Positions 1-28,130 of a DNA stretch of 32,000 bases are shown in pieces (position 1 is the stretch's first letter; every line of letters starts with the position of its first letter). The translations under genes were made by a program, and so were the position numbers. The notes under the pieces were generated by a model. That model saw nothing but the letters and a program-made list of their open reading frames with translations. It ran no database searches and was not told where the DNA came from. The DNA is from Chitinophagaceae bacterium (GTDB taxonomy: Bacteria; Bacteroidota; Bacteroidia; Chitinophagales; Chitinophagaceae), in NCBI GenBank assembly GCA_016720745.1, contig JADKKA010000006.1, positions 57,604 to 89,603 on the forward strand, in the 5' to 3' direction.

Positions 1-98
1 ATGCTGTCATTCGTCTGCTGTGCAGAAAGTGTTACTGTGAAAAAAACGGGAATGATACAAATGATCAATAGTGCAGTCCATGAAACAGACTTCAGCAT
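1..98 (-). CDS. 5' end (32 codons) of a secreted or envelope protein gene that continues beyond the left edge
   Basis: The reverse complement of 1..98 starts with ATG (96..98) and reads MLKSVSWTALLIICIIPVFFTVTLSAQQTNDS. It has a basic n-region, a hydrophobic core and an SAQ/Q cleavage-like site. It is too short for the ORF track and is divergent from the kinase operon. Confidence 0.35.
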   Translation of the reverse strand, partial: MLKSVSWTALLIICIIPVFFTVTLSAQQTNDS

Positions 99-324
99 AG
101 GAATAGTTTAATGAAAACTATTGATTTTGTCACCATAACAATTTGCGTTTTGGTAACCTTCCGGGCAGATTTTGTGGCAGCCTGATTTGATTTGACTGAT
201 GTACAGTCAGATAGCGGGTTCAAAAGGAGTCTGTTTTGCTGTGTATCGAGTTAATTGCCAATTTAAATGAGCTGGCGGCTAAATCTCCCTAATGTATTAT
301 TATCCCTTGTTTGTACTTTAGAGA

Positions 325-3300
325 ATGAGATTTTACAGTATCATCCTGGCCTTGCTGTTTTTGGGGCCGGTATCTGTAGTGGCACAGGAGGCGGGTGAGA
401 AGGCAAATAATATTCCTCAGCTTGCTTTCCGTGAAGTGAATTACCCTTTTCTGCCATCTATTACATCTGACTATTTTTATTTTTCAAGTGACGGGCTCAT
501 GTGGTTCTCCTCAGCCGGGGGTCTCACTTCCTTTGATGGCACCAGCGTGCTGTATCATAATAACAAAACAGAAGCCAATGAACTGGAGTTGAATTCGATA
601 AATACGATAACGGAAGATGAAAATAAGAATTTGTATATCGGTACCAGGACAAGACTGATCTATTTTGACAGGGCCAGGAAAACCTTATCAGGGGTGAATT
701 TGGGATTTAATAAATCTGGAAAGCCGGATATATATGGCATCACCAGTCTGTATTATGATCAGCAACGTAAGCTTGTATTTGTGGGCACAAATTCGCGGGG
801 ATTATTAGTATATGAAACAGCATCAACCCGATTCTCCCATTTCAATTTGAATACAGCCCAGCATGCTGACTGGGAAAACAGAACCGAGAATACCGTTCGT
901 GCTATTGCCCCGCATTTTTCAGATGAGAACCTGCTTTGGCTGGGTACATTTCAGGGGATTCAGTTATTCAATAAGAATACGAAGAAGATTACCAGGAATT
1001 TTTTCGTCAATAACCCTGTCAGCTCAGTAGATGGTACGGTAAAGAAGGATTATGAGGTGATCCAAATGGAAGTGATGAATGATTCCATCATCTGGTTTAA
1101 TAGCTGGTCGTCAGGATTGGGAAAATACAATGCCCGGTCTTCTGCTGTACAAATGTTCCTCAATAAAAAAGTGGCAGGCTTTGCAAATGCCGTTCCCAGA
1201 CAAGTCAGTCCATCCTTTTGCAGGCTGGGTAATGGCTACTTTTTTATAGGTGCCCATAATAACAAGTCCGGCATTTTTGATCCCAATACCGGTATGCATT
1301 ATCCTGTCAACATAAAGGAAATGATTGTGCCTGATGATAAAGTAACTTTTGTGTCGCCTGATCGCAAAGGGAATCTCTGGCTGATCCGCAACGGGGCCCT
1401 TGTTACAACTATGCCTGATTATGCCAGATTGCAAACCACCGATATCAGCCGGCAGCTGACACCGGATTATAATAACAATGAATTAAGAGGGATTTGTTAT
1501 GATTCAGTTACAAAGCGGTATTACGGTGCAGTCAGGCATTCCTCCGGGGTATATGTTTTTGACAGCAGTTTTAAACTGCTGGAAATTATTCCAACACCAT
1601 TGTATACGAACAGGTATACATTAAATGAAACCTGTACCGACAAAATTACGATTGATGGCAGCGGGAGAATTTGGGTTACCGGTCACGAAACGTACATTTT
1701 AATGCCGGGCCGGAAGAAATTCGATTATATCAGAAATGTGTTACCCTCTCTGGCCTGGCTGGAGAAAAAGGGAGAGTTTTACTTTATGCTCAGCAACCGG
1801 GAGGGTGATATTATGATGCAGGGGGATAATGCGAATCTATATGTCATTAACCACAAAAGTCTTGAAACGGATACTGCCGCTATCGTGAAATTTGACTATG
1901 AGGGAAATTATGTAAATACTAATTCGCCTTTGTTATATGATGCTGTAAGGTCCCTGGTTTACTATTCCAATAATTATGGGACCATACAATATGATTTAAA
2001 GAAAAAAAAGAGAAACATCATCAGCCCGGATGCATTTTTGGGACCTGACCGAAGTGGCAGGCCGCTTGTAAAATTTTCGCTGGATGATCTCGGTAGAATT
2101 TGGGTGCTTCGTGTGAATCAGGGAATCCGGATTATTGATCCACAGACTTTGAAATGTGTTGACTCATTTCCTATTGGATCCCGGGGATTGTTGCCGGAGA
2201 ACTACACTTATATTTCCGGCGGCGGGAAAGACTATATGATACTGGAGGGAAATTCAGGTATTGTGGTTTACAACTATACTACCCGGCATTCTTTGATGTT
2301 TAATCATACCAATGGATTGAAACATGTCAGGCCCTATGCAATCATGTACTGCAAAAATCACCTGGTGCTTGGGCTGTCAAATGCCGTTCAGTATTACCGG
2401 ATACCTGATTTTGTAAAAAATAATTTCACATTAAAACCCAGGGTAAATAATGTTCATGCGGATACAGTCATTGTTTACGAGCCAGGTTTAAATGATGAGG
2501 ATAGGGAAATCAGGATAAAATATTCCAGGAATAGTATTCGATTTTCTTTTTCGGTACCTGAGTATGTTTTTCCTGAAAGGGTGGAATATGCTTATCAGTT
2601 GTTTGGTTATGATAATGAATGGCATTTTGCCACTTATTTCAGACGGGAAGTAGCTTATTCCCGCTTACCTCCTGGAAAATACGTTTTCAGTCTTAAGGCC
2701 AGGTTGCAGGGCGGGAACTGGGATATCAATCCCGTAAACTATACCCTGATTATTGAGCCGGCATTCTGGCAAACAATCGGGTTTAAAGTGCTGCTCATGT
2801 TGCTGGTCCTGGCCGGTTTATTCCTCGGGCTGCAACTCCGTATCCGTGTAATCAGAAAACAGGAAAGGGAAAAAGCGGGATATGAAAAACAGTTTTTGGA
2901 ACTGGAGGCAAAGGCGTTAAGGGCACAGATGAATCCGCATTTTATATTCAATTGTATGAATTCCATCAAATCGCTTATACAGGAAGATCAAAGGGAGAAA
3001 GCGGTTGTTTATCTGACAACTTTTTCAAAATTGATCAGATTCCTTTTTAACAATGCAGACAAGAAAGAAATTTCCCTCTATGATGAACTGGAAACCTGCC
3101 GCTTGTACCTGCAACTGGAAGCCATGCGATTTGGGGTTCAATTCCAATATGAGATAGAAATTGATGAAGGGATAGATTTAAAATCAGTATTTATCCCGGC
3201 TTTAATTATCCAGCCATTTATTGAAAACGCCATCTGGCACGGAATCATTCCTAAGGGAAGCGGAGGAAAACTTTCCCTCGTTATAAAAAGAAAGAATGAT

Positions 3301-3534
3301 CAGGTTGAAATTATCATCGATGATGATGGTATTGGACGGCAGGTATCGTTGCAGAATAAATCCATATCCAATATCGCCCACCAGAGTAAAGGAGTGAATC
3401 TGACCCAGGCCCGGATTGAACTGGATAATCTTCTTCGACAGCAGGAAGCAGGTATTGAAGTGATCGATAAACATGATTCACTGGGATCGGCTGCCGGGAC
3501 AAAAGTTATTATCACACTAAAAATTCCGGAATGA
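325..3534 (+). CDS. Sensor histidine kinase with a large extracytoplasmic propeller-type sensor (two-component-regulator propeller repeats plus a Y_Y_Y-like domain), one TM helix and a LytS/YehU-type kinase core
   Basis: ATG at 325 and a signal-like N-terminus MRFYSIILALLFLGPVSVVAQ. About 790 aa of aromatic/Gly-rich repeat sensor follow, then the TM segment FKVLLMLLVLAGLFLGL. The core has LRAQMNPHFIFNCMNSI (the His box of the His_kinase/LytS family), QPFIENAIWHG, DDDGIG and GVNLTQ ATPase motifs. Confidence 0.9.
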   Translation: MRFYSIILALLFLGPVSVVAQEAGEKANNIPQLAFREVNYPFLPSITSDYFYFSSDGLMWFSSAGGLTSFDGTSVLYHNNKTEANELELNSINTITEDENKNLYIGTRTRLIYFDRARKTLSGVNLGFNKSGKPDIYGITSLYYDQQRKLVFVGTNSRGLLVYETASTRFSHFNLNTAQHADWENRTENTVRAIAPHFSDENLLWLGTFQGIQLFNKNTKKITRNFFVNNPVSSVDGTVKKDYEVIQMEVMNDSIIWFNSWSSGLGKYNARSSAVQMFLNKKVAGFANAVPRQVSPSFCRLGNGYFFIGAHNNKSGIFDPNTGMHYPVNIKEMIVPDDKVTFVSPDRKGNLWLIRNGALVTTMPDYARLQTTDISRQLTPDYNNNELRGICYDSVTKRYYGAVRHSSGVYVFDSSFKLLEIIPTPLYTNRYTLNETCTDKITIDGSGRIWVTGHETYILMPGRKKFDYIRNVLPSLAWLEKKGEFYFMLSNREGDIMMQGDNANLYVINHKSLETDTAAIVKFDYEGNYVNTNSPLLYDAVRSLVYYSNNYGTIQYDLKKKKRNIISPDAFLGPDRSGRPLVKFSLDDLGRIWVLRVNQGIRIIDPQTLKCVDSFPIGSRGLLPENYTYISGGGKDYMILEGNSGIVVYNYTTRHSLMFNHTNGLKHVRPYAIMYCKNHLVLGLSNAVQYYRIPDFVKNNFTLKPRVNNVHADTVIVYEPGLNDEDREIRIKYSRNSIRFSFSVPEYVFPERVEYAYQLFGYDNEWHFATYFRREVAYSRLPPGKYVFSLKARLQGGNWDINPVNYTLIIEPAFWQTIGFKVLLMLLVLAGLFLGLQLRIRVIRKQEREKAGYEKQFLELEAKALRAQMNPHFIFNCMNSIKSLIQEDQREKAVVYLTTFSKLIRFLFNNADKKEISLYDELETCRLYLQLEAMRFGVQFQYEIEIDEGIDLKSVFIPALIIQPFIENAIWHGIIPKGSGGKLSLVIKRKNDQVEIIIDDDGIGRQVSLQNKSISNIAHQSKGVNLTQARIELDNLLRQQEAGIEVIDKHDSLGSAAGTKVIITLKIPE

Positions 3535-4697
3535 GTGCTCTTAGACAAGCCTTATTTTCATTTCAGCAATCCAGATACCTGACCTGGCAACTGGCCGGGT
3601 GGGGAAGTTTTGCCCTCCTGCATACATCAGTGGAAGCACTGAAGCAAACAAATAGTTCAACTCCCTTTTTTGTTTTTGCGCTGGCTGCTCTGCTGATTAT
3701 TATTTGCGGTATCACCCTTACTCATCTGATGCGGGCAATCATCATTTACTGGGGGCTGATGAAACTACGTTTAGGTCAGCAGGCTTTTTTTCTTTTCGCA
3801 TTAACGGCATTCTTTACAATCCTGTTCTGGATTTTGTTTACAGTGTTCTTTTATTGTCTGATTGGGGCAGAGAGTTTATTGCCCCGGGTTTTTTCAGCCA
3901 TATTGCGGTTTGAGCTGGCCGGTATCAGGGGCATGGTTTCACAATGGCTCACTTTTTCCGTGCCCTTTGTAGTCTGGAACTTATCTTATACACTGATTCA
4001 TTATGATCAACGCAACAAGAATGCGGAATGGCAAAAACTGGTCAGAGAAAAGGAAATGGTGGAGCTCGAGGCCCGTGCCCTCCGTGCCCAGATGAATCCA
4101 CATTTTGTTTTCAATTGCATGAATTCCATCAAATCACTGATTCAGGACGGAGAACAGGAAAAGGCCGTGAACTATCTCACGACATTTTCCAAACTGATCC
4201 GAAACCTTTTCAGTCAGTCCGATAAAAATGAAATCACATTGTTTGATGAAATTGAAACCTGCCGTCACTACCTGCAACTGGAAGCCATGCGTTTTGATGC
4301 AAGCTTTTCCTATACCATTGAAATTGATGAGCATATTGATCTCAAATCGGTTTCTATTCCAGCCCTGATCATACAGCCATTTATTGAAAATGCCATCTGG
4401 CACGGATTGGTTCCCCGTGGTACCGGTGGCGAGTTACTGGTTAAAATTCAAATGGAGGTCAGGAATATCGAAATAGTCATTGATGATAATGGAATCGGCA
4501 GGGAAGCTTCCCGGCTGATGAAAAACAAGTCAACTTCAGTTCATCATAGCAAGGGTGTCAATCTAACCCAGTCAAGGTTATTGCTGGATAATATCCTGCA
4601 AAAAAGAAAAGCCAGTCTTCAGTATACAGATAAACGGGATAATGAAGGCAAAGCCACTGGTACTAAAGTGGTTATCAGCATTGTCGTAGAAGAATAA
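3531..4697 (+). CDS. Membrane-embedded sensor histidine kinase (multi-TM bundle with no large external domain) with a LytS/YehU-type kinase core
   Basis: Its ATG overlaps the upstream stop as ATGA (3531..3534). The first ~165 aa are hydrophobic helices (FFVFALAALLIIICGITLTHL, AFFLFALTAFFTILFWILFTVFFYCLIG, WLTFSVPFVVWNLSYTLI). The core has LRAQMNPHFVFNCMNSI, QPFIENAIWHG, DDNGIG and GVNLTQ. Confidence 0.9.
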   Translation: MSALRQALFSFQQSRYLTWQLAGWGSFALLHTSVEALKQTNSSTPFFVFALAALLIIICGITLTHLMRAIIIYWGLMKLRLGQQAFFLFALTAFFTILFWILFTVFFYCLIGAESLLPRVFSAILRFELAGIRGMVSQWLTFSVPFVVWNLSYTLIHYDQRNKNAEWQKLVREKEMVELEARALRAQMNPHFVFNCMNSIKSLIQDGEQEKAVNYLTTFSKLIRNLFSQSDKNEITLFDEIETCRHYLQLEAMRFDASFSYTIEIDEHIDLKSVSIPALIIQPFIENAIWHGLVPRGTGGELLVKIQMEVRNIEIVIDDNGIGREASRLMKNKSTSVHHSKGVNLTQSRLLLDNILQKRKASLQYTDKRDNEGKATGTKVVISIVVEE

Positions 4698-4805
4698 GGA
4701 TGAATATGAATGACTTTACAGGAAACAGAAATTGTTAAATCAAATTGGCCAACTGCCAAACTTCAATCATCAGAAGGGTCAAAACCCGTAATTTCAAAAA
4801 CAGTT

Positions 4806-5552
4806 ATGATCAGGGCTATAATTATTGATGATGAACCGCATTGTATCAGGGCATTGCTCAGGGACCTGCAATTGAATTGTCCCATCGTTGAAGTAGCAGA
4901 TACCTGCAATTCGGCCAAAGATGGGTTACAGGCGATAAAGCTGCATCAACCCGACCTGGTTTTCCTGGATGTGGAAATGCCCTGGATGAATGGCTTTGAA
5001 ATGCTGGACCTGCTGGGTGAAATCAATTTCTCCATCATATTTACCACCGCCCATGATGAGTTCGCCGCCAAAGCATTCCGGATCAGTGCCGTTGATTATC
5101 TGCTGAAGCCGATTGACGCCAATGATCTGAAAGCAGCGGTTAAGAAAGTGGAAAAAAAGATGGAGGAGGGTTCGGGTGTCAGACATATCACCAACCTGCT
5201 GGCCAATATAAAACAACCTTCAGGCAGTCAGAAAATAGCACTTCCACAAAGAGAGGGGTATGAATTTGTGGATGTAAGCTCGATTGTTTATTGCAGCGCG
5301 GAAGGAGCTTATACCAAAGTGCTGATTCTGGATAAAAAACCCATGCTGATTTCGCGTACACTGGGGGATGTGGAGGAACTGCTACCCCCGGAAATGTTTC
5401 AGCGAATACATCATTCCTCGCTGGTAAATGTGGATTATATTTCACAGTTTCTGCGAACGGACGGAGGCTATGTGGTTTTGAAAACAGGCGAAAAACTGTC
5501 GGTGAGCAAGGCGAAAAGGGAAAACCTGATGGCCAGACTGGGTTTAAAATAA
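4806..5552 (+). CDS. LytTR-family response regulator (REC domain plus LytTR DNA-binding domain)
   Basis: MIRAIIIDDEP ... LVFLDVEMPWMNG ... DYLLKP form the receiver domain. The C-terminal segment IVYCSAEGAYTKV ... FQRIHHSSLVNVDYI is LytTR-like. The ORF track opens at ATG 4710, but the family-typical start is ATG 4806. The extra 32 aa look non-conserved. Confidence 0.9.
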   Translation: MIRAIIIDDEPHCIRALLRDLQLNCPIVEVADTCNSAKDGLQAIKLHQPDLVFLDVEMPWMNGFEMLDLLGEINFSIIFTTAHDEFAAKAFRISAVDYLLKPIDANDLKAAVKKVEKKMEEGSGVRHITNLLANIKQPSGSQKIALPQREGYEFVDVSSIVYCSAEGAYTKVLILDKKPMLISRTLGDVEELLPPEMFQRIHHSSLVNVDYISQFLRTDGGYVVLKTGEKLSVSKAKRENLMARLGLK

Positions 5553-5557
5553 ATAAA

Positions 5558-6664
5558 ATGATCAAACTGAAATTTCACCCCGATAATGGCACGGCTTTCT
5601 ATAAAGAGCTGAAGCAACGACTGGATGAATATTTTACAAACACCCAAACCAGCCGGGAAGGAAATGGAATCATGCGGTTTAAAATCTTTCTTTATTTCGG
5701 ACTGGATATTCTATTTTATGTTTTGATGATTAATAGCCGGACTCCGGGGGCATTCTATCTTTTTTACCTGCTGCTGGGTTTATCCATTCTGCTGACTGCC
5801 TTTAATATTTCGCATGATGCAGCACATGGGGTGGCGGTGAAAAGTAAGTTCTGGAATAAGCTCCTGTTTCAACTCAGTTTTCAACTGCAGGGGAATAATG
5901 CCTATGTATGGGGTAAGAACCATAATGAATCCCACCATTTGTATACCAATGTTGAAGGCAGTGATATTGATGTGCTGAATAATCCCGCAGTACGGATGAC
6001 CGATACCCAAGCACTGAAATGGTTCCATCGTTTCCAGCATATTTATACTCCTTTTTTGTACCTGCTCTATTCCCTGAACTGGTTTCTGTTCAGGGAAACA
6101 CTGATGATTTTCAATTATTCCAGCCGCACGATTCAAATCAGGATTCCGCGGAATGAAGTAGCGAAACTGATCTTTTTTAAACTATTCTATATCGGCTATA
6201 TGATTGTATTACCGGCCCTCCTGCTTCCTTTTGGCTGGGGAACGGTATTGCTGGCATTTTTGCTGAACCATTTCATGGTGTCGGTGATATTTGTAGGCGT
6301 GCTGGGTGTTTCTCATTTATCCGATTATGTTCACCATCCCAAACCAGATGATAATGGGAATCTTTCCATGAGCTGGCCCAAGTTGCAGATGCTTACCTCG
6401 GTGGATTATAATTCGGGGTCGGTATTTTTTAACTGGACACTCGGCGGTTTTAATGCCCATGCCCTTCATCATCTGTTACCCAATATCAGTCATGTCCATT
6501 ACCTGAAAATACTACCCCTCTTCCGGGAAGTATGCAGGAAGCATGGTATTGTATATATGGAAATGCCCTATCACCGGGCCCTGGCGGCTCATTTTCGATT
6601 CCTGAAAAAAATGGGACAGTCGGCATCACCCCAACCCCTTGCATTTGAAGGACCGGCATATTAA
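5558..6664 (+). CDS. Membrane fatty-acid (acyl-lipid) desaturase of the DesD/Des-like type, without a cytochrome b5 fusion
   Basis: Three His boxes are present: HDAAH, HNESHH and GGFNAHALHHLLPNISHVHY. Hydrophobic spans lie between the boxes, and the N-terminus FYKELKQRLDEYF is typical of this desaturase class. The ATG lies 5 nt after the regulator stop. Confidence 0.9.
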   Translation: MIKLKFHPDNGTAFYKELKQRLDEYFTNTQTSREGNGIMRFKIFLYFGLDILFYVLMINSRTPGAFYLFYLLLGLSILLTAFNISHDAAHGVAVKSKFWNKLLFQLSFQLQGNNAYVWGKNHNESHHLYTNVEGSDIDVLNNPAVRMTDTQALKWFHRFQHIYTPFLYLLYSLNWFLFRETLMIFNYSSRTIQIRIPRNEVAKLIFFKLFYIGYMIVLPALLLPFGWGTVLLAFLLNHFMVSVIFVGVLGVSHLSDYVHHPKPDDNGNLSMSWPKLQMLTSVDYNSGSVFFNWTLGGFNAHALHHLLPNISHVHYLKILPLFREVCRKHGIVYMEMPYHRALAAHFRFLKKMGQSASPQPLAFEGPAY

Positions 6665-6686
6665 TATCAGCGATGACAGCCGGCTG

Positions 6687-7712
6687 ATGAAGCTGGTGTA
6701 CCAGGGAATTGAAAGTGAATTGCAAATCAATCCCCGGGCAACGACTTTTTTACTCCTGCTGAAGTTCCTCGTATATCTTTTCCTGGTTGTTTTCTTTTAC
6801 CTGTTGATCTATACTACAGATCAACCGGTAATATTTTTTGTAGCGTATACAGCTTATGGTTTGTCGGCCGTCCTGTTTGGATTTAATTATGCCCATGATT
6901 GCTCACATAACACGGTTTTTAAAAGCAAATCCCTGAACAGCGGCTTTTTCATTTTTATTTACAGCCTGGTGGGGGCGCATGCGGAAGCCTGGCGATACCG
7001 GCATATTCACTCACATCATTATGCCCCTAATGTAAAGGAATATGATACAGACCTGCAGATCACCTCATTGATCCGGGTGGAACCGGATAGTCACTGGCGC
7101 TGGTATCACCGTTTTCAACATTGGTATGCACCGCTGGCCTATATGACCTATTCTGTTTATTGGGTTTTTATCAAGGACTTTTTGATTTATGCAAAAGACT
7201 GCCGATGCCAACCAACGAAACCATTCTGGTATCATGTCTCTTTCTGGCTGCAGAAAGTATTTTACCTGGGCTACCTTTTATTCCTGCCACTTTATTTCAG
7301 TGGCATGGATTGGTACCTGGTACTGGCTGCTTTTCTGCTAATGCATGCCGTGCAGTCTTTATTCCTGTTGTTTACTTTTTTCATGACCCACCATGTAGAA
7401 GCTACCGCTTATTTTAAAGCAGATGAGGAAGGCTATATTCCTTCTTCCTGGTTCATGAATCAGGTAAAAAGCTCCAATGACTTTTACCCCTTCAGTAAAA
7501 CGGCTAATTTTATATTCGGCGGCTTTAATAACCATATTGCCCACCATCTTTTTCCGCATATACACCATGTGCATTACCCTAAACTGAACAGGATCCTGTA
7601 CCGTGTTCTGCAGGAGAACCAGATCCGCCCCAATGAAACAGGCTTCTTTACTGGTATTATTTCACACCTGGCTCATCTGAGAAAGTTGAGTCATCAGCCT
7701 AGCGACAAATGA
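6687..7712 (+). CDS. Second membrane fatty-acid desaturase, a diverged paralogue of 5558..6664
   Basis: His boxes HDCSH, HIHSHH and GGFNNHIAHHLFPHIHHVHY. The track start at 6639 is TTG and overlaps the upstream gene. The first ATG is 6687, 22 nt after the upstream stop. Confidence 0.88.
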   Translation: MKLVYQGIESELQINPRATTFLLLLKFLVYLFLVVFFYLLIYTTDQPVIFFVAYTAYGLSAVLFGFNYAHDCSHNTVFKSKSLNSGFFIFIYSLVGAHAEAWRYRHIHSHHYAPNVKEYDTDLQITSLIRVEPDSHWRWYHRFQHWYAPLAYMTYSVYWVFIKDFLIYAKDCRCQPTKPFWYHVSFWLQKVFYLGYLLFLPLYFSGMDWYLVLAAFLLMHAVQSLFLLFTFFMTHHVEATAYFKADEEGYIPSSWFMNQVKSSNDFYPFSKTANFIFGGFNNHIAHHLFPHIHHVHYPKLNRILYRVLQENQIRPNETGFFTGIISHLAHLRKLSHQPSDK

Positions 7713-8329
7713 AGAAAACGAGTTTTCAGCTGCTGCTTCTATTCTGTTGCATCAACAGCAATCTGCTGCTGGCACAATCATCCGAACCCCGGCTACGAAT
7801 CCTGGTCGTCAATTGTTTTGACCCGGCATCCACCAGCTTCCGGAAGAATAAAAAAGAGTTACTCTCTGAAGTAGCAGACAGCCTGCGATTTTATCTGCTT
7901 GAAATGATTGAAAAGTCAAATACCGGAATGGGAAGTATGGTAGATAATAAGTTTACTGATTTGAGCGGTAGTACAGACAGGCTGGATAGTCTCAGGGTAC
8001 AACAGCAGGCTGACTTTGTAATGGCCATTTTAAATGTGGAGGCTGAATTTGTAAAAACAGAGGTAGAAGTAGAAAGGCAGGATGATGGCTCAAAAAAACG
8101 TACAGCCCGTTATGATCTTTGTACTACCATTAATTATTTACTGGCTGGAAAGAATTCGACCTATATTGAAAGGAAGGAGATGGTTTGCGAGTTTTTTACA
8201 GAAAGGACCGTCATGAGTGGCTTACTGGCTGCCGGCCCCGACCTGGTTGGAAAACACAAATGGGTTTTCAGGGCTGCCAGGAAAAATGCAGCTGCTTATT
8301 TTGATTATATACGCAGCTCTCTGCAATAA
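7709..8329 (+). CDS. Secreted protein of unknown function, the last gene of the kinase-desaturase unit
   Basis: ATGA overlap with the desaturase-2 stop (7709..7712). It has the signal peptide MKKTSFQLLLLFCCINSNLLLAQ. I recognise no family motif. Confidence 0.65.
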   Translation: MKKTSFQLLLLFCCINSNLLLAQSSEPRLRILVVNCFDPASTSFRKNKKELLSEVADSLRFYLLEMIEKSNTGMGSMVDNKFTDLSGSTDRLDSLRVQQQADFVMAILNVEAEFVKTEVEVERQDDGSKKRTARYDLCTTINYLLAGKNSTYIERKEMVCEFFTERTVMSGLLAAGPDLVGKHKWVFRAARKNAAAYFDYIRSSLQ

Positions 8330-8330
8330 A

Positions 8331-9221
8331 TCAATCCGGAAATAAACTCCAGAATAACAATACCACCCTTCTGCGGGGATCATCAACTTTATAGTCTGCT
8401 ATTTTTGGATCCGGTAAGCCTTCTCCTTTTCCTTCGAACATGTAGAGTACGTTCTTGATATAGATCCCGTTCTGGGATTTCGTAGCCGCGAATTGTTTAA
8501 ACAGCACCCATACTGCTTCGGCCCTGGCCCTGGATAATTCTTTATTGAGTTCCCTGGCGTCTGGTTCTTTATTCGTCATCGCTAATCGTTCTCTCAGCGA
8601 ACGGTATAAGGTTGATCCTTCTCCAATCGTGGTGCCATCTGCATAGCCTTTAAATGTAATGACCAGGGAGAGGGGGAAATCAGGATACTTCGTTGTAAAA
8701 CGGTCGATCTCTGCCGCAGCTGGCTCAAATAATTTGGTCATGTTTTTAACCATATCCGGACTCACATTATAACTTCCGGGCTGAAACAAGACATCCTGGT
8801 CCAGTTTAACTACCATGTTCCTGTTCAGCAAATCCTGCAGGAATGATATTTTCTGATTGATGCGCTGTTCAGCTGTCCTTGTTGAAGACAATACTTTTTT
8901 CAGCCGGTCCCAATCGGATTTATCTACTTCGGTACCGTTGATCAGGATGGTATTCTGATTGATCAGGGTATCAATTTCCTTATCCGTTTTGTCGATAAAA
9001 TTTTTGATACGGGCATTCGCTGTACTGTCAATTCCGTTTTCATCATCTTTTTTCTGTCTGACTTCATCCAGCTTTTTCAGGTTCTGACTATGAACCGTCA
9101 GCTGACTGTCGAGGGTAGTGAGCTGCTTTTTACTGCTGATTACTTTTTGCTGGGGTACACAGGAAAATAATCCTGACAGGATGCATGCAATGAGTAGAAG
9201 GGGGAGGGCTGTTTTACGCAT
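8331..9221 (-). CDS. Lipoprotein with an N-terminal coiled-coil-like region and a C-terminal OmpA/MotB-like domain
   Basis: Lipobox LSGLFSC. The middle is K/E/Q-rich. The C-terminus has VLFQPGSYNVSP ... FKGYADGT ... NKELSRARAEAV ... RRVVLL, which resembles the OmpA-like peptidoglycan-binding pattern. Confidence 0.72.
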   Translation of the reverse strand: MRKTALPLLLIACILSGLFSCVPQQKVISSKKQLTTLDSQLTVHSQNLKKLDEVRQKKDDENGIDSTANARIKNFIDKTDKEIDTLINQNTILINGTEVDKSDWDRLKKVLSSTRTAEQRINQKISFLQDLLNRNMVVKLDQDVLFQPGSYNVSPDMVKNMTKLFEPAAAEIDRFTTKYPDFPLSLVITFKGYADGTTIGEGSTLYRSLRERLAMTNKEPDARELNKELSRARAEAVWVLFKQFAATKSQNGIYIKNVLYMFEGKGEGLPDPKIADYKVDDPRRRVVLLFWSLFPD

Positions 9222-9280
9222 AGAACAGCGGTTTTATGGTGCTATCTAAAGATAGAAAATCAAACGCTGAAAAACAATAT

Positions 9281-10162
9281 TTAATCTACTGCCAATAATA
9301 CCTGCCAGGCTGCCTGTACATGGCCTTTATCCAGTAATTTTTTAGCATAGCGGTGCAGCTCTTTTTCCATATCTGCCGGGTTAATGCTGTAATACTGAAT
9401 GATATGTTTCAGGTGGGTGTCCTCAAATGCCGGGTCAATAACAGGATATACGTTTACATTGCCCAATTGTCCCAGGTTATTCCCGGTTAAGATGGGGCTG
9501 TTCCGGATACCGGCCGGTAAAGCATCCACGCCAATACCCAACTGAGTATTGGGTTTTTCGACCCGAAAAAGATTGCGATCATCCACCCAACAGTACCAAT
9601 CGCCCCCGAGCCTTGCCACCAGATTAATTCTTCGCTGATCCAGTTTTTTTTCTTCGTCGAAAAGGGAATCGTCAATGTGCATCGTTAATACTTCACAAAT
9701 CACCAGGTTGCCGGCACCGCCTTCTGATCCCAGCGGTTTTACTTCCAGCACTTTGCATTCCATGTTCACCTTGCTTTCTTTTACCAGCGGCGGTCGTACG
9801 ATGCTGGCGGGTACTTCGGTAAAACCTGCTTTGGTAAATTCATTGACTCCTTCCGGGTATTCGCAGCTGGATAATGAAACCTGCTGCACCATGTCATAAC
9901 TCACCATGCTGATCACTACCTCGGGTACTTCCAGTACGTTTTGCAGGGTATGCTTGGTGGTATTATCCCTGACCCTCCGGGAAGGTGAAAAAATCACCAC
10001 CGGCGGATTAGAAGAAAAGAGATTGAAAAAACTGAAGGGGCTGAGATTCACCTCGCCATCCTTACTGATCGTGGAAGCAAAGCAAATAGGGCGTGGGGCT
10101 ACGACGTGTTGGAGGTAGTATTGTTTTTGTTGGGGGGAGAGGTCCTGGAGGTTGAGTATCAT
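9281..10162 (-). CDS. Flavin reductase-like (FMN-binding split-barrel) family protein
   Basis: VAPRPICFASTISKDGEVNLSPFSFFN and the following barrel-like segment are typical of the Flavin_Reduct family. The ATG is at 10160..10162. Confidence 0.8.
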   Translation of the reverse strand: MILNLQDLSPQQKQYYLQHVVAPRPICFASTISKDGEVNLSPFSFFNLFSSNPPVVIFSPSRRVRDNTTKHTLQNVLEVPEVVISMVSYDMVQQVSLSSCEYPEGVNEFTKAGFTEVPASIVRPPLVKESKVNMECKVLEVKPLGSEGGAGNLVICEVLTMHIDDSLFDEEKKLDQRRINLVARLGGDWYCWVDDRNLFRVEKPNTQLGIGVDALPAGIRNSPILTGNNLGQLGNVNVYPVIDPAFEDTHLKHIIQYYSINPADMEKELHRYAKKLLDKGHVQAAWQVLLAVD

Positions 10163-10168
10163 AGTTTA

Positions 10169-10211
10169 TTTTTAACCGCAGAGAACAGGAGTAAGCGGAG
10201 ATTTCGCAGAG
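10169..10211. repeat. Left arm of a 43-nt imperfect inverted repeat bracketing the GxxExxY ORF
   Basis: tttttaaccgcagagaacaggagtaagcggagatttcgcagag matches the reverse complement of 10750..10792 at 36/43 positions (hand-aligned), including the perfect 17-mer accgcagagaacaggag. Confidence 0.85.
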
Positions 10212-10601
10212 TTAGAACTGATATACAATTCGATGAAATCCTTCTTTAAGAAGAGGGACATTAAAATTAATCAAATATCCCAGTTTTTTCTGGTACAACT
10301 TAAGATAGGTTATAAGTTGAGCTTTGAAAATGGGCTCGATAGCAGTTACAGATTTTATCTCAAGAATGATTTCGTCTTCTACCAAAATATCTATAACATA
10401 AACTTTCCCCAAAGGCTTTTCTTTATAACTAAGCTCAACCGGAACCTGTGTTCTTATAAATAGACCTCTTAAGTTTAATTCCCTTACCAATGCAATTGTA
10501 TAGGCAGATTCCAGTAATCCCGGCCCCAGAATTCTATGAACTGCTAAACAGGAATCTAGAATAACTCCCCCGATTTTATTTAAATCTATTTTTGATAACA
10601 T
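10212..10601 (-). CDS. GxxExxY protein (small PD-(D/E)XK nuclease-superfamily protein)
   Basis: IGGVILDSCLAVHRILGPGLLESAYTIALVRELNLRGL carries the eponymous G-x-x-E-x-x-Y. DILVEDEIILEIK resembles a D..E.K nuclease core. The track start at 10628 is TTG. ATG 10601 gives the family-typical ~129 aa and sits 17 nt after a TTCATTTG near-consensus -7 box. Confidence 0.85.
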   Translation of the reverse strand: MLSKIDLNKIGGVILDSCLAVHRILGPGLLESAYTIALVRELNLRGLFIRTQVPVELSYKEKPLGKVYVIDILVEDEIILEIKSVTAIEPIFKAQLITYLKLYQKKLGYLINFNVPLLKEGFHRIVYQF

Positions 10602-11881: not shown

Positions 11882-13183
11882 ATGAATAAAGGCCTACTCC
11901 TTCTTTTATTTCCATTGCTTTCTTTTTGGCCCAGGGAAGAACCCTCCGCCTGGATCCGGATCAACCAGCTGGGTTATACACCGGCTGCTGTAAAAGTGGC
12001 TGTTTGGTGCAGAAAAGAAGCAAAGCAGGTCATATCAAAGTTTACCCTGGTGGATGCAGTGACGCAAAAGCCGGTCTATACCGGAAATGCTGGTAAGGAC
12101 TTCGGCGCCTATGGTCCATTTGCCCAAACTTTTCGGCTGGATTTTTCTACTTTCAAAAAACCCGGGCGATATTTTTTACAAACAACCGATGCCCGCTCCC
12201 CTGAATTTGAAATTGGAAACGATGTGTACAAAGGCGCAGCTGATTTTTGCCTGCGTTATATGCGGCAGCAAAGAACCGGTTTCAATCCCTATCTCAAAGA
12301 CAGCTGTCATACCCACGACGGATATGTGTTATATGGCGAAAAAGCCGGGATCAAGGACAGTACCCATATTGATGTGGTGGGTGGCTGGCATGATGCTTCG
12401 GATTATTTACAATACAGTGCCACATCTGCCAATGCTACCTGGCACTTGCTGGCTGCCTACCGCGATTTTCCACAAGTGTTTACCGATGAAAAACAGTCCA
12501 ACGGACTGGATGGTAAAAACGGAAGGGCCGATGTATTGGATGAAGCCAAATGGGGACTGGACTGGTTATTGAAAATGCATCCACGGGATGACTGGATGTT
12601 CAACCAAATAGGAGACGACCGCGATCATATCAATATGCGGATGCCCACACAGGATACACAGTATGGGAAAGGAATGGAAAGACCGGTCTATTTCGTGAGT
12701 GGTGAACCACAGCAACGGGGAAAATTCATGAATGCCACAACGGGAACTACCTCAACGGCAGCTAAATTCTCAAGTGCCTTTGCACTGGGGAGTATATTAT
12801 TTGATCCTGTTGAATCAGCCTACTCAAATCTGCTCTCGGAAAAAGCAATGACAGCTTATGTATTTGCTTCACGCAAAACCGGGTTTACTCAAACGGCATC
12901 TGTCAAATCACCTTATATCTATGCCGAAGAAAACTGGGTGGATGACCTGGAATTGGCCAATGCGTCGATGTACCAATTAATGAAACTTCCGGGAAAGAAA
13001 GTAGATGAAAATAGTTATGGAAAAAAAGCATTTGAATCTTCCCGGCTGGAACCTGTCACAACCTGGCTGGGTAAAGATACAGCCCGTCATTATCAATGGT
13101 ATCCCTTTATCAATCCTGGTCATTATGAAATCGCAAAGCAAATAAAAGGATTCCGGATCGAAAAGAGGGGTTTAAAAAAGTAA
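11882..13183 (+). CDS. N-terminal fragment of the split gene: signal peptide, CelD_N-like Ig domain and first part of the GH9 catalytic barrel
   Basis: IRINQLGYTPAAVKVAVW is an Ig-like N-domain and GGWHDASDYLQY is the GH9 DAxD catalytic-base motif. The fragment ends at TAA 13181..13183, right after AAAAAAG. Confidence 0.8.
   Translation: MNKGLLLLLFPLLSFWPREEPSAWIRINQLGYTPAAVKVAVWCRKEAKQVISKFTLVDAVTQKPVYTGNAGKDFGAYGPFAQTFRLDFSTFKKPGRYFLQTTDARSPEFEIGNDVYKGAADFCLRYMRQQRTGFNPYLKDSCHTHDGYVLYGEKAGIKDSTHIDVVGGWHDASDYLQYSATSANATWHLLAAYRDFPQVFTDEKQSNGLDGKNGRADVLDEAKWGLDWLLKMHPRDDWMFNQIGDDRDHINMRMPTQDTQYGKGMERPVYFVSGEPQQRGKFMNATTGTTSTAAKFSSAFALGSILFDPVESAYSNLLSEKAMTAYVFASRKTGFTQTASVKSPYIYAEENWVDDLELANASMYQLMKLPGKKVDENSYGKKAFESSRLEPVTTWLGKDTARHYQWYPFINPGHYEIAKQIKGFRIEKRGLKK
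13174..13183 (+). other. A_AAA_AAG heptamer in the 0 frame, immediately followed by the 0-frame stop TAA, at the junction of the two GH9 reading frames
   Basis: The 0-frame codons are TTA(13172) AAA(13175) AAG(13178) TAA(13181). The -1 frame continues GTA(13180) ACG GGC TAT TAT AAA GAA ... = VTGYYKE. Confidence 0.7.
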
Positions 13184-13347: not shown

Positions 13348-14433
13348 TTGATGCAAGCCAATATTGACTGGTTATTTGGTTGCAATCCCTGGGGAACATC
13401 CATGGTATATGGCTTACCCAATTGGGGAGATACACCGGTTGATCCGCATTCTGCATTCACCCATATTAAAAAATACCCGATTGATGGCGGACTGGTAGAT
13501 GGTCCGGTGTACACCAGTATTTATAAAGGACTGATCGGTATCAAATTGTTTGAACCCGATGAATATGCTGCATTTCAAAGTGACCTGGCTGTTTATCATG
13601 ATGATTATGGCGACTACAGTACCAATGAACCTACAATGGATGGAACCGCTTCGCTTATTTATTTATTAGCTGCGCAGGAGGCAGCACGCCCCTCTCCTTT
13701 GGTCCCGATAGCAATCGGGAGGGGTAAGGGGGAGAGGTCTAGCGGCGCCATCATCAGAGGAGATAGCTCGCAAAAGAAAATCGCTCTTGTCTTTACCGGT
13801 CATGAGTTTGCTGAGGGCGGACAGCAAATTGAAGAATACCTGGACAATGCCAATATCAAGGCTTCCTTTTTCTTCACCGGTGATTTTTACCGGAACCCGG
13901 ACTTTCATCCCATCATTCGTAAACTGTATAAAGAAGGACATTATCTGGGACCACATTCCGATCAGCATTTATTGTATTGCGACTGGTCCAAACGCGACAG
14001 TCTGCTCGTAACGAAATCGCAGTTTCGATTTGATTTGGCCGATAATTATACCGCCATGGCCCGGCTGGGGATTGATATTAAAAAAGCAAATATTTTTTTA
14101 CCGCCTTATGAATGGTATAACGATAGTATCGCTGCCTGGTCAAAGGAATTACAGATTCAGTTGATCAATTATACACCCGGTACCCTCAGTCATGCAGACT
14201 ATACCCTGGACAATGATAAAAACTACCGCAGCTCTGAAAAAATACTGTCCTCCATCCTGCAATATGAGCAAACAAAGCCGGCCGGACTGAACGGGTTTAT
14301 TTTGCTGATGCATGTCGGGGCCGGCCCGGGAAGGACCGATAAATTTTACCGGAAACTGCCCGAACTGGTCCGCTATTTAAAGGCCAAAGGCTATCAGTTT
14401 CAACGGGTTGACAACTTAGTTGAAACTGATTAA
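13348..14433 (+). CDS. C-terminal fragment of the split gene: end of the GH9 barrel plus a polysaccharide deacetylase-like domain. The reading frame is actually open from 13129
   Basis: DWLFGCNPWGTSMVYGLP, LVDGPV and YSTNEPTMDGTASLIYLLA (the GH9 catalytic-acid Glu motif). A linker ARPSPLVPIAIGRGKGERSSG follows, then IALVFTGHEFAEGGQQIEEYLDNANIKASFFFTGDF ... HSDQH, which is deacetylase-like. Confidence 0.8.
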   Translation: MMQANIDWLFGCNPWGTSMVYGLPNWGDTPVDPHSAFTHIKKYPIDGGLVDGPVYTSIYKGLIGIKLFEPDEYAAFQSDLAVYHDDYGDYSTNEPTMDGTASLIYLLAAQEAARPSPLVPIAIGRGKGERSSGAIIRGDSSQKKIALVFTGHEFAEGGQQIEEYLDNANIKASFFFTGDFYRNPDFHPIIRKLYKEGHYLGPHSDQHLLYCDWSKRDSLLVTKSQFRFDLADNYTAMARLGIDIKKANIFLPPYEWYNDSIAAWSKELQIQLINYTPGTLSHADYTLDNDKNYRSSEKILSSILQYEQTKPAGLNGFILLMHVGAGPGRTDKFYRKLPELVRYLKAKGYQFQRVDNLVETD

Positions 14434-14486: not shown

Positions 14487-15164
14487 ATGCATTTCGAAAA
14501 AATACATAATAAAGGGCAGGCAAGGCTCTTCAAGAGTGATTTCCTTGAAGCACTGACCAAGGCCAATCCGCTTGTGATCTGGGGTATGTATATCCCTATC
14601 CTGACTTATATTATTTACCTGGCAGCCACCAAATACAATTACAGCACCGGTACCATCCTGCTGGTCTTCTTTGGGGGTATGTTTTTCTGGACACTATTTG
14701 AGTATATCGCTCATCGCTTTATTTTTCACTGGGTACCCAAAACGCCGGGTTCTATCAAGTTTGTGTACACCCTTCATGGGAATCATCATCATTACCCCCG
14801 CGACAGGCAGCGTTTATTCATGCCGCCTTTGCCTAGTATTATTATTTCATCCACTTTGTTTGGATTGACCTATCTGCTCATCGGTAGTTATACATTCATG
14901 TTCTTCCCCGGATTCCTGCTCGGTTACCTGATGTATGGTACCATGCACTATGCCATCCATGCCTGGAACCCTCCTTTTAAATGGATGAAACCACTTTGGA
15001 GAAACCATCACCTGCATCATTATAAAAATGAACATAATGGATACGGAGTGAGTTCTACTTTATGGGATCATATTTTTGGGACCATGTTTGATCTGAAAAG
15101 AGAAAAAGAAGATAAAGAGAAAGTAAAAGAACTGATGTTTGAGAAGAAATCTTCCAACTCCTGA
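14487..15164 (+). CDS. Fatty acid hydroxylase / sterol desaturase superfamily membrane protein
   Basis: Four His clusters are present: HRFIFH, HGNHHHYP, HYAIH and NHHLHHY. Hydrophobic helices lie between them. Confidence 0.85.
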   Translation: MHFEKIHNKGQARLFKSDFLEALTKANPLVIWGMYIPILTYIIYLAATKYNYSTGTILLVFFGGMFFWTLFEYIAHRFIFHWVPKTPGSIKFVYTLHGNHHHYPRDRQRLFMPPLPSIIISSTLFGLTYLLIGSYTFMFFPGFLLGYLMYGTMHYAIHAWNPPFKWMKPLWRNHHLHHYKNEHNGYGVSSTLWDHIFGTMFDLKREKEDKEKVKELMFEKKSSNS

Positions 15165-15229: not shown

Positions 15230-16237
15230 ATGAAAAAGTTGCATTTTTTGTTATTGATCCTTCCACTTTGCATTGCAGCCTGTCAGTCAAAGGGAAAAAA
15301 ACAGGAATCGGCTTCTTTCTTATCCGCTAAGGAAACAGTACTGCTGAATCAATTGGTGTATAAGCCCGGGTTAAAAGATACTTTACTGACATATGCGCCC
15401 GGATTTGAACTGGTTTTTCAGCCACAGGCCGTCAATGGCAATTTTGCCTATATCGCTAAAAAGAAAGATTCTCTGCAATACGCCCTGGTGATCCGGGGTT
15501 CGCTGATTGAATTTAGCAACGAAGGTTTCCAGAATTTCATCCTGCAGGACTTCAATGTCTTTAACCAGAAAAAATGGGAATATGCCGATACTGTGAAAAA
15601 AGCCTATCTCTCCCGGGGAACTTATCTTGGTTTTCAAAACCTGCTGCAACTAAAAGATGGAACAACGGGTTTGTCACTGCTGGATTTTATTGAGCAGAAA
15701 ATTCCCGCGGGCTCATCGCTGGTTGTTACCGGACATAGCCTGGGTGGTAACCTCGCTTATCCACTGGCAGGCTACCTGAAGAAACAATTAAAAGGGGCTG
15801 TACAACAAAACATACAGCTGATCACATTTGGCGCACCTGCAGCAGGTAATGCTGCGTTTGTACAGGACCTGGAAGAAAAATTTCCCAACGCAGAACGTTA
15901 TACGATTGATAAGGATATTGCGCCTTCTTTCCCTGATCATACCCGGATGGGTTTGATTGCCAAGTCTATTGGACTGGATAAGGCCCTGCACATCAAAGAA
16001 CTTTCACTGGATGCCGGTGATTTATTGCAATTAGCAGGGGATTTACTCGAGCAAACGAATATCATTGGTAAGGATGATAAATATGTACAAAGTGAAAAAC
16101 ATCTCCGGTTGCTGACCAGTACAGCCCCATCAGTGATAGATACAGTTTTGTCTGCCGATGCTTTGTTCGGAAGAGCCTATGAATACCACCGGGTAGATGC
16201 TTATGCCATTTTACTGGGTGGGAAGGCGCTGGAATAG
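15230..16237 (+). CDS. Class 3 lipase family lipoprotein
   Basis: Lipobox LCIAAC and the nucleophile elbow LVVTGHSLGGNLA typical of Lipase_3. Confidence 0.85.
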   Translation: MKKLHFLLLILPLCIAACQSKGKKQESASFLSAKETVLLNQLVYKPGLKDTLLTYAPGFELVFQPQAVNGNFAYIAKKKDSLQYALVIRGSLIEFSNEGFQNFILQDFNVFNQKKWEYADTVKKAYLSRGTYLGFQNLLQLKDGTTGLSLLDFIEQKIPAGSSLVVTGHSLGGNLAYPLAGYLKKQLKGAVQQNIQLITFGAPAAGNAAFVQDLEEKFPNAERYTIDKDIAPSFPDHTRMGLIAKSIGLDKALHIKELSLDAGDLLQLAGDLLEQTNIIGKDDKYVQSEKHLRLLTSTAPSVIDTVLSADALFGRAYEYHRVDAYAILLGGKALE

Positions 16238-18102: not shown

Positions 18103-18110
18103 CAAAAATA
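18103..18110 (-). promoter_or_regulatory. Bacteroidota-type -7 promoter box TAttTTTG (minus strand)
   Basis: Exact TAnnTTTG match on the minus strand, 44 nt upstream of ATG 18058. Confidence 0.35.
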
Positions 18111-18214: not shown

Positions 18215-19141
18215 TCAGGGATTGAGCCATTCTTTGAAGGCGGCAGCTCGTTTTTGGCTAATGATCACCTCTTCTTCCTGTGGTGGATGAAGGTGCAGGG
18301 CCAGTTTACCATTCTCTTCGTTGGTGAAATAATGGCAGGCCTTGATATTGATAATATACTGCCGGTTGGCCCGGAAGAAAAGGGATTCTTCAAGCAGTTT
18401 GGCCAGTTCGTCCAGACTATGGTTCAGCAGATAAGTATCGGACTGAAATGTTTTGAGGGTGGTATAATTGCCCGTCTTGTAAAAGCAGGCAATATTTTCA
18501 ACGGGAATCGGGATATTCTTATTGCCTGATACGGCTACCAGTAAACGGATTTTTCCCTGTCCCTGGTTTTGAGGAATGAGTTCTGCCTCCTCTGCTTCAA
18601 AACCCGGATCATTGGGCGCTGCAGGTAATACATCGGCACCGGTTCGTATATTTTGCAGCGTGAATAATTGTTGTTTCAGAGAGATTAGTTCTTCTTTTTG
18701 TTTTTTACTCTCCCGGTAAAAATAATAGCCCACATACACCACATTCCAGAAAATGATAAAGAGGATGGAAATCGGGAATTCCGTAAAAAAGAACTGTACT
18801 TCTTCTTTTTTAAACCCTAATAAAACAATCAGGTAAGTATACATGAATCCAAGCACAAAGAGTGCAGGCAGTACCACGGCAGCAATCAATTGATAGATCA
18901 GCCGGGTGGTAAAATATTTATGCCAGGGGTATTGCTGATCGAGATAGGAAGTAATCAGATTGATCAGCGATGTAACGATAAAACTGATCGAGAAACCGGC
19001 CAGCACATCAGAAAGAAAATATTTTCCGTTAATAATATCCGAAAAGGAATCAGTGCCCAGGAAGACAAAGAAAAAGCTGAGCAGTAAAGAAACGCCCAGG
19101 CGCAACCAGAAATCACGGTATGGAGAAAAACTGTTTTCCAT
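18215..19141 (-). CDS. Membrane-anchored LytTR-domain DNA-binding protein (4-5 TM helices plus LytTR, no receiver domain)
   Basis: The N-terminal half is hydrophobic helices. The C-terminus IACFYKTGNYTTLKT ... FFRANRQYIINIKA is LytTR-like. The track start at 19144 is TTG and the adjacent ATG is 19139..19141. Confidence 0.85.
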   Translation of the reverse strand: MENSFSPYRDFWLRLGVSLLLSFFFVFLGTDSFSDIINGKYFLSDVLAGFSISFIVTSLINLITSYLDQQYPWHKYFTTRLIYQLIAAVVLPALFVLGFMYTYLIVLLGFKKEEVQFFFTEFPISILFIIFWNVVYVGYYFYRESKKQKEELISLKQQLFTLQNIRTGADVLPAAPNDPGFEAEEAELIPQNQGQGKIRLLVAVSGNKNIPIPVENIACFYKTGNYTTLKTFQSDTYLLNHSLDELAKLLEESLFFRANRQYIINIKACHYFTNEENGKLALHLHPPQEEEVIISQKRAAAFKEWLNP

Positions 19142-19155
19142 CAATGGTAAAAGTA

Positions 19156-23515: not shown

Positions 23516-23523
23516 CAAAATTA
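23516..23523 (-). promoter_or_regulatory. Bacteroidota-type -7 promoter box TAatTTTG (minus strand)
   Basis: Exact TAnnTTTG match on the minus strand, 19 nt upstream of ATG 23496. Confidence 0.3.
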
Positions 23524-26762: not shown

Positions 26763-26770
26763 TACCTTTG
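26763..26770 (+). promoter_or_regulatory. Bacteroidota-type -7 promoter box TAccTTTG, with TTG at 26740..26742
   Basis: Exact TAnnTTTG match. A TTG lies 20 nt upstream, and ATG 26814 lies 43 nt downstream. Confidence 0.3.
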
Positions 26771-28001: not shown

Positions 28002-28130
28002 ATTTCACAAACCTGTATTTTTGCGGCTCTTTCCCGGGTTACAGCTCAGCCTGTTTTATTCCGGTAAAGTATTCGCAAAGTCTCCCGTTTATTCGGGATC
28101 AGAAGGCGGTCACCTTTTAAAAAGTTTAAA

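Follow-up and report, generated by a model that had tools for sequence, protein, structure and literature searches.

We analysed six co-oriented genes on the plus strand (325-8329) of a 32,000-nt stretch of DNA from a Chitinophagaceae bacterium (contig JADKKA010000006.1, positions 57,604 to 89,603; hereafter the window). The genes encode two sensor histidine kinases (HK1 and HK2), a LytTR-type response regulator (RR), two membrane desaturases (Des1 and Des2) and a secreted protein of 206 residues (O206). Comparison with about 165 related loci suggests, with moderate confidence, that the locus is a lineage-specific mosaic operon composed of three modules. The first module would be an ordinary Bacteroidota two-component system, in which a REC-LytTR regulator is combined with two paralogous PF06580 kinases. 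One kinase has a ligand-binding propeller/Y_Y_Y domain in the periplasm, the other a transmembrane-only N-terminus. The second module would be the secreted protein O206, which has an LptE-like fold and normally starts 7-30 nt behind the regulator, and the third the overlapping Des1/Des2 cassette, which is distributed throughout the Bacteroidota. In a single Chitinophagaceae subclade the cassette is located between RR and O206 and is without its usual upstream spacer. Regulatory capture of the desaturases is plausible, and a dedicated lipid-sensing circuit is no more than possible.

Layout of the unit and distribution of its modules

The open reading frame (ORF) listing and Pfam searches identified the six genes. 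HK1 (1069 aa, 325-3534) and HK2 (388 aa, 3531-4697) overlap by an ATGA at 3531-3534, and the end of Des2 (6645-7712) overlaps the start of O206 (7709-8329) by the same 4 nt at 7709-7712. The stop codon of RR (248 aa, 4806-5552) at 5550-5552 is followed after a 5-nt gap by the ATG of Des1 (368 aa, 5558-6664). O206 ends 1 nt from a convergent gene for a 296-aa coiled-coil lipoprotein (O296; 8331-9221, minus strand), which forms the 3' boundary of the unit. These junctions had been placed at the same coordinates in a first-pass annotation made from the sequence alone, and its description of six same-strand genes was also verified, with the catalytic and signalling motifs all intact. Its statement that the genes have almost no spacing applies to the tight junctions, but not to the 108-nt non-coding stretch between HK2 and RR (4698-4805), which is the single true gap within the unit and, by alignment, a candidate promoter/operator for RR-Des1-Des2-O206. 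The non-coding region upstream of HK1 (99-324) contains no ORF and may carry a promoter of the operon. RR was assigned to start at ATG 4806 and not at ATG 4710, because the alignment with orthologues begins no earlier than residue 30-33 of the longer ORF and because alignment indels in the stretch upstream of ATG 4806 are not multiples of three. At the protein level the window is almost identical (99-100%) to the metagenome contigs L081 and L082, and the closest genome is the Chitinophagaceae metagenome-assembled genome L001.

A metagenome scan yielded 80 RR orthologues with 63-100% identity, for which a neighbor-joining (NJ) tree was built and the gene context was mapped. Orthologues of at least 68% identity recurred in the order kinase(s), RR and an O206-like gene facing a convergent flavin-reductase gene, in some cases together with the O296 gene, and those of 68-84% identity were found beside O206 and the flavin-reductase gene without desaturases. 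O206 starts 7-30 nt after the RR stop codon in nine desaturase-less loci, which indicates that RR and O206 form a conserved transcription unit. The placement of the cassette behind RR, with O206 or the flavin-reductase gene on its far side, was restricted to one Chitinophagaceae subclade and was seen there in eight loci (the window, L001, L083, L104, L086, L002, L089 and L088) that represent seven distinct sequences, since L002 and L089 are near-identical. All eight contain an HK2-like kinase, a spacer of 102-113 nt and an RR-Des1 junction of 5-13 nt. In five other loci of the same subclade (L087, L101, L110, L111 and L112) RR runs straight into O206 or the flavin-reductase gene, and no cassette was found beside RR outside this subclade among the informative loci. 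HK2-like kinases with a transmembrane-only N-terminus are also present in six desaturase-less loci (L092, L121, L128, L131, L134 and L159); their identity to HK2 (39-47%) is the same as that found in most desaturase-containing loci. Thus, the adjacency of a LytTR regulator to two desaturases is not unique to this genome, and the search of Bacteroidota neighbourhoods that had been proposed to check it found that it does recur, but within one subclade. To judge from their gene contents, close relatives can do without each of these parts at this locus, be it the kinases, RR, O206 or the cassette.

The cassette itself is far more widespread than this linkage. A scan with Des1, taking one genome per species, detected orthologues with 68-92% identity in 80 genomes of Chitinophagales, Cytophagales, Sphingobacteriales, Flavobacteriales and Saprospiraceae. 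Des2 orthologues (45-88% identity) directly follow Des1 in nearly all of the loci, and the overlapping pair was present in 76 of the 81 Bacteroidota loci surveyed. When ORFs within ~6-7 kb were clustered, no conserved neighbour or regulator of the cassette was revealed and no family occurred in more than 7 of 80 loci, the most frequent neighbours at or below this number being DUF4197, ECF sigma, OsmC and others. Among the surveyed genomes, a kinase and a LytTR regulator lie co-oriented directly upstream only in L001 (Des1 92% identical) and L002 (82%); none of the 78 other Bacteroidota loci has a co-oriented two-component system at this position. LytTR systems were found elsewhere within 10 kb of the cassette in 4-5 loci (L027, L048, L063; possibly L068 and L069). 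Their orientations vary, and such systems are presumably numerous in these genomes, so that these occurrences look like chance.

Syntenic relatives include L003 (Des1 81% identical) and L164 (84%), in which the order DUF4197-DUF4197-Des1-Des2 is followed by the convergent O296 and flavin-reductase genes and, in L164, further downstream by FAA hydrolase, GH9 and FA hydroxylase genes. The downstream genes of these two loci match those of the window, and DUF4197 is also found upstream of the window in L081. Neither locus has the kinases, RR or O206, and in both Des1 is preceded by a spacer of 132-158 nt with a -7-like box and a C/A-rich leader. L165 (Des1 81% identical) likewise has the cassette with an upstream spacer of its own and without a two-component system, and keeps only the flavin-reductase flank. 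Compared with the Bacteroidota cassette in general, the window has the same gene order and the same overlapping Des2 start, but has lost the upstream spacer and sits within a two-component operon. A tree of Des1 groups the two-component-system loci in one clade, with L164 nested inside and L003 and L165 basal, which is compatible with a single origin followed by loss or with a slight error of the tree.

The flavin-reductase-like gene (9281-10162, minus strand; PF01613, 5.4e-17) is found in convergent orientation downstream whether a locus has both modules, the two-component system alone or the desaturases alone. It was considered as an electron donor of the desaturases and rejected, because it stays in desaturase-less loci; it is therefore a synteny anchor of all three locus types and not a specific partner. 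The convergent lipoprotein has a weak OmpA-like C-terminus (E 0.013, under the Pfam cut-off) and is syntenic in L001, L003, L095 and L164.

Properties of the encoded proteins

HK1 consists of a signal/transmembrane segment (residues 3-21), a periplasmic region of ~795 aa with propeller and Y_Y_Y domains, a second transmembrane segment (818-836) and a PF06580 core (His_kinase 2.2e-22, Y_Y_Y 2e-13, Reg_prop 4.8e-09, plus HATPase_c). HK2 has a transmembrane-only N-terminus of ~4 helices followed by PF06580 and HATPase_c, and its PF06580 core is 62% identical to that of HK1. Pfam and transmembrane prediction thus agree with the first-pass description of HK2 as membrane helices plus a kinase core and of HK1 as adding a propeller input of ~790 aa. 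The PF06580 scores of HK1 and HK2 (79.5 and 84.3 bits) are well above the cut-off of 25.2, and the sequence AQMNPHF, which includes the NPHF phospho-acceptor motif, is present in both. The HATPase_c matches (19.7 and 18.2 bits) are under the cut-off of 26.4, with the N box (IENAIWHG) and the G box (DDDGIG/DDNGIG) visible. Pfam detected no 5TMR_LYT or GAF domain in either kinase, and in the N-terminus of HK2 no sensor domain of any kind even at E <= 10. RR is LytTR-type, as had been proposed: Response_reg (73 bits, 2.7e-20) and LytTR (58.6 bits, 7.2e-16) are each over the cut-off, and the receiver residues are intact, with the DD pocket, T and K, and the D of LVFLDVEMP as phospho-acceptor.

The PF06580 core with NPHF and the REC-LytTR regulator are shared with LytSR of Staphylococcus aureus and BtsSR/YpdAB of Escherichia coli. 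In contrast to those systems, neither 5TMR_LYT nor GAF is present here, and HK1 has a propeller/Y_Y_Y region as in Bacteroides hybrid two-component sensors. Against NCBIfam, RR reached 124 bits for BtsR (cut-off 246) and 92.5 bits for LytR (cut-off 375). Since 5TMR_LYT is missing and the equivalog scores are far under the cut-offs, the proteins are not orthologues of LytS, BtsS or YpdA, and by domain content they appear to belong to the broad PF06580/LytTR class. The genes downstream also differ: the established LytSR target lrgAB lies directly downstream in S. aureus, whereas here the downstream genes encode desaturases and an LptE-like secreted protein and not holin-like proteins or transporters. 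We take the HK1 ectodomain to resemble no lipid sensor, but the glycan-sensing propeller/Y_Y_Y region of hybrid sensors from Bacteroides. The HK1 orthologue of L001 (5715-7979) has only 754 aa compared with 1069 aa in the window; its ectodomain of ~425 aa plus Y_Y_Y is one propeller shorter. Only the kinase core could be aligned between the two (56%), which suggests that the input domain turns over quickly.

Des1 and Des2, which are ~31% identical to each other, match PF00487 with 97.6 and 84.4 bits (cut-off 29.7). Three His boxes of the pattern HX3-4H, HX2-3HH and HX2-3HH were found in each, HDAAH at 86, HNESHH at 122 and HALHH at 301 in Des1, and HDCSH, HIHSHH and HIAHH in Des2, so the proposal of two membrane desaturases stands. 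The hydrophobic segments of Des1 fall into two blocks of two; Des2 also has two blocks, but with only one segment of the second above threshold. The only NCBIfam match of the desaturases was weak (DesB Delta10, 32.9 bits against a cut-off of 500), and PDB sequence searches for solved relatives of Des1 and O206 gave chance matches only. Des1 is named 'linoleoyl-CoA desaturase' or 'fatty acid desaturase family protein' in databases, and the substrates are presumably fatty acyl chains. A literature search found no experimental characterisation of the Bacteroidota Des1/Des2 cassette, which is absence of evidence only.

The first-pass annotation started Des2 at ATG 6687. This start had to be revised, because a peptide [L/M]-[R/K]-D-[K/R]-H-I-H-I-x-x-D-S-x-L-L-K, encoded upstream of ATG 6687 in the +1 frame, is conserved in 76 of the 81 loci, with variation concentrated at third codon positions. 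The first codon of Des2 is TTG in 53 of these 76 loci and ATG in 22; related loci have no ATG after the Des1 stop, and ATG 6687 of the window corresponds to Leu in most orthologues. Des2 of the window thus starts at the conserved TTG 6645 inside Des1, which gives a 20-nt overlap instead of a 22-nt gap. Overlaps of 11 nt were counted in 67 loci, of 20 nt in five and of 8 nt in three. The window's clade has 20 nt, and in the window the difference from the usual 11 nt is due to three extra Des1 codons. The overlap makes translational coupling probable, and by the conservation of this arrangement the two paralogous desaturases are probably coupled in this way across the Bacteroidota. Gene callers that require ATG shorten Des2, as in L164, where it is annotated with 341 aa.

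Two further features were observed upstream of Des1 in other loci. An ORF without a Pfam family ends at or overlaps the Des1 start in seven loci of several lineages (L014, L022, L024, L028, L055, L062 and L066). Its length is 329-358 aa in four of these loci and less in the others, and its conserved C-terminus is ...GEPIHIYDSKY..FKHWGFI..ISKRNIKEG.... The window lacks this ORF, which in some lineages may represent a third member of the cassette. A C/A-rich leader, ...CATTTTAAAAGAC.ACCC.ACCGACAAAGACAAACATTGACAAAATG, is found 30-50 nt upstream of Des1 in L030, L037, L044, L078, L063, L033, L003 and others, which belong to different orders and lack the two-component system. The core ATTTTA[AG] occurs within 70 nt of the Des1 ATG in 14 of 76 loci, compared with 5 in control windows, and the sequence could combine a -7 box with an unstructured leader for translation. 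The window, in which RR abuts Des1, lacks it. A small upstream ORF or leader peptide was considered as a general feature before Des1 and was rejected, since the signal is in fact either the C-terminus of the larger gene (the seven loci) or the subset with the C/A-rich leader, and is not universal.

O206 carries a signal peptide, matches no Pfam family and is clade-specific, with 16 homologues that are all annotated as hypothetical. Its AF2 model (pLDDT 85.2) was compared with the PDB by Foldseek, which gave E-values down to 2.9e-06 with TM-scores of only 0.35-0.47. The matches, to LptE, HpaA, CsgG, PelC and FlgT-type lipoproteins, are at fold level only, and for this reason neither a specific function nor a link to lipid desaturation was assigned from the fold. 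On the basis of the model, O206 is best described as a putative periplasmic or outer-membrane-associated protein. The signal peptide agrees with the earlier proposal of a secreted partner of the desaturases, but the partnership does not hold: from its position in desaturase-less loci, O206 is the usual downstream cistron of the regulator. Distant O206 homologues in L161 and L162 (1330-1503) face a flavin-reductase-like gene, with a 57-aa LytTR fragment upstream that is apparently a decayed regulator.

Transcription signals and rival readings

The 5-nt RR-Des1 gap and the tight packing leave no room for a promoter of the desaturases' own, and no embedded promoter is evident, since the 3' end of RR varies freely at synonymous sites among the desaturase-containing loci. 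Scanning 1-10500 on both strands detected 17 weak terminator-like sites, compared with 10.2 +/- 3.2 in shuffles. The best plus-strand site (3862-3887, -14.5 kcal/mol, z = -1.49) is located in a Phe-rich stretch coding for transmembrane segments and is not conserved in L001 or L083. Because this hairpin is neither significant nor conserved, it was rejected, and there is no credible internal terminator; scan, folding and conservation agree here with the first-pass annotation. No Rfam family was found at the gathering score in a scan of the whole window, so neither a riboswitch nor a known leader is involved.

The perfect Bacteroidetes -7 box (TAnnTTTG) does not occur on the plus strand of 1-8329, and 99-324 contains one-mismatch matches only. 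One-mismatch matches are too many to interpret, and a sigma-70 scan is not meaningful for Bacteroidota. In the whole window the box is depleted (13 occurrences compared with 28.9 +/- 5.8 in shuffles), and several copies lie 20-115 nt upstream of other gene starts; examples are 18103-18110 and 23516-23523 on the minus strand and 26763-26770 and 28016-28023 on the plus strand. Alignment of 14 orthologous HK2-RR spacers revealed two boxes, TTGTTAAATC at 4732-4741 and GTAATTT at 4788-4794, which occur in loci with and without desaturases. A weak 14-nt repeat (4779-4792/4794-4807) and short inverted repeats are also present. The packing and the lack of an internal promoter or terminator hold for RR-Des1-Des2-O206, whereas the 108-nt HK2-RR spacer could hold a second promoter. 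RR, Des1, Des2 and O206 are most probably carried on one transcript, as their packing suggests.

With the cassette packed inside the RR operon, co-transcription of the desaturases with RR is very likely. Transcription would start from a promoter in the 108-nt spacer before RR, by read-through from upstream of HK1, or from both. Many LytTR regulators, for example those of the AgrA and ComE types, autoregulate. If RR activates its own operon, desaturase expression would follow the signals perceived by HK1 and HK2, and by this analogy we give an even chance that RR controls the RR-Des1-Des2-O206 transcript. The fuller proposal, that the core desaturase cassette of this subclade has been captured by a dual-kinase LytTR operon and that membrane unsaturation has thereby become signal-dependent, is offered tentatively, as less likely than not. 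Several points weigh against the mosaic operon and its regulatory consequences. No convincing LytTR-type direct repeats were found in 4660-4830 or 60-340, and autoregulation is assumed. The RR coding region may contain a weak non-consensus promoter, and genomes with the same layout may possess a second, independently expressed cassette copy. The order of events could be either an insertion of the cassette or a composite ancestor with differential loss, and the NJ trees were built on short proteins.

The locus had been read in the first-pass annotation as a hard-wired control system for lipid unsaturation. In that case it would be a dedicated circuit analogous to DesK-DesR, in which HK2 senses the bilayer, HK1 adds an extracytoplasmic input and the LytTR regulator switches the desaturases on. 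The embedding of desaturases without their own promoter in the regulator operon agrees with such a circuit, as do the repetition of the layout in at least seven other contigs, always with an HK2-like kinase and the 102-113 nt spacer, and the lack of any recognisable sensor domain in HK2 beyond its membrane helices. However, relatives of the window keep either part alone: orthologous regulators with HK2-like kinases are found without desaturases in the six loci described above, and the cassette without an adjacent two-component system in 78 other loci and in L003, L164 and L165. A transmembrane-only N-terminus is generally the commonest architecture of PF06580 kinases in Bacteroidota, and the HK1 ectodomain differs even in the closest relative L001. 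The first-pass interpretation is thus supported in part, but the comparison contradicts its stronger implication of a conserved, dedicated circuit. We consider a dedicated circuit quite unlikely, and it is improbable that the signal of HK1/HK2 is the membrane state, to which nothing points.

The opposite reading is that the adjacency has no regulatory meaning, the desaturases being expressed constitutively, from a non-consensus promoter within RR or by basal read-through, while RR acts on targets elsewhere. The linkage is indeed labile, since there are close relatives that have lost or are without the system, O206 or the cassette. The high conservation of the cassette (68-92%) is housekeeping-like and makes its dependence on a variable sensor unlikely, and the LytTR systems within 10 kb in only 4-5 of the 78 other loci look chance-like in their orientations. 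In contrast, the RR-Des1 junction of 5-13 nt is conserved in all desaturase-containing loci, the -7-like box and the C/A-rich leader of relatives without the system are absent here, the unit is without a perfect -7 box, and genes that are co-transcribed with a regulator are exposed to whatever controls that transcript. Such a silent adjacency is possible, although we regard it as doubtful. It had also been suggested that the system controls the divergent gene at 1-98 and that the desaturases are passengers. This candidate was dropped: the gene encodes a low-complexity secreted protein of 111 aa, which is conserved in L001 and has no link to the system, and nothing points to its regulation.

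The mosaic operon shares features with known desaturase-controlling systems, but its signalling proteins belong to families unrelated to DesK-DesR and Hik33. DesK of Bacillus subtilis has, like HK2, no extracytoplasmic domain. It is established that DesK-DesR combines a HisKA_3 core with a NarL/LuxR-type regulator and that des is a separate unit with a DesR-dependent promoter, whereas this locus combines PF06580 with LytTR, as the earlier annotation had pointed out and Pfam confirmed, and has the desaturases inside the regulator operon. There are also two kinases and two desaturases here, and the linkage is not conserved beyond one subclade. Cyanobacterial Hik33 (DspA) is likewise a membrane kinase and is a proposed rigidification sensor that induces desB and other desaturase genes; it is established that it contains HAMP, PAS and HisKA domains, that its partners are OmpR-type regulators and that its gene does not adjoin those of its desaturase targets. 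No paper linking a LytTR system to desaturases was found in a literature search, which agrees with the earlier view that such a module is undescribed and is absence of evidence only.

Neighbouring genes and significance

A second, paralogous module of a propeller kinase and a LytTR regulator, whose RR is 58% identical, lies upstream of the window in L081 (1-3293) and L001 (1-5489). Next to it come a gene for a DUF4197 lipoprotein and a pair of small divergent genes, one for a protein of 168 aa and the other for the low-complexity 111-aa protein that corresponds to 1-98 of the window. The stretch is thus an array of LytTR two-component systems. Downstream of the unit, a GH9 cellulase gene is seemingly split into 11882-13183 (CelD_N and GH9 1-240) and 13348-14433 (GH9 356-444 and a polysaccharide deacetylase). 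The counterpart in L164 is a single CelD_N-GH9 gene of 671 aa, and the split may reflect a frameshift, a pseudogene or faulty assembly. Further genes outside the unit encode a protein of the FA_hydroxylase family (14487-15164), a class-3 lipase/thioesterase-like protein (15230-16237) and, on the minus strand (18215-19144), a 309-aa protein with a C-terminal LytTR domain and no receiver.

From the distribution of the linkage, the arrangement appears to be a variant of sensor-linked desaturase genes that is confined to one subclade. Control of the desaturases by RR, if real, would mean that bacteria have wired a two-component system to membrane desaturation in a second, unrelated way. A true capture would show regulatory rewiring that arose naturally through insertion into an operon, and would provide DesK-DesR with its first counterpart of the LytTR type. 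Natural controls are available, since close relatives have the same flanks without the sensor system or without the cassette. The broader lead may matter more, namely that a highly conserved overlapping desaturase pair, for which we found no characterisation, is common to aerobic Bacteroidota. We take this cassette to be the obvious candidate source of the chemotaxonomic monounsaturated fatty acids of the Bacteroidota, such as 16:1 omega-5c, and the window and its relatives supply precise gene models for it, including the corrected TTG start.

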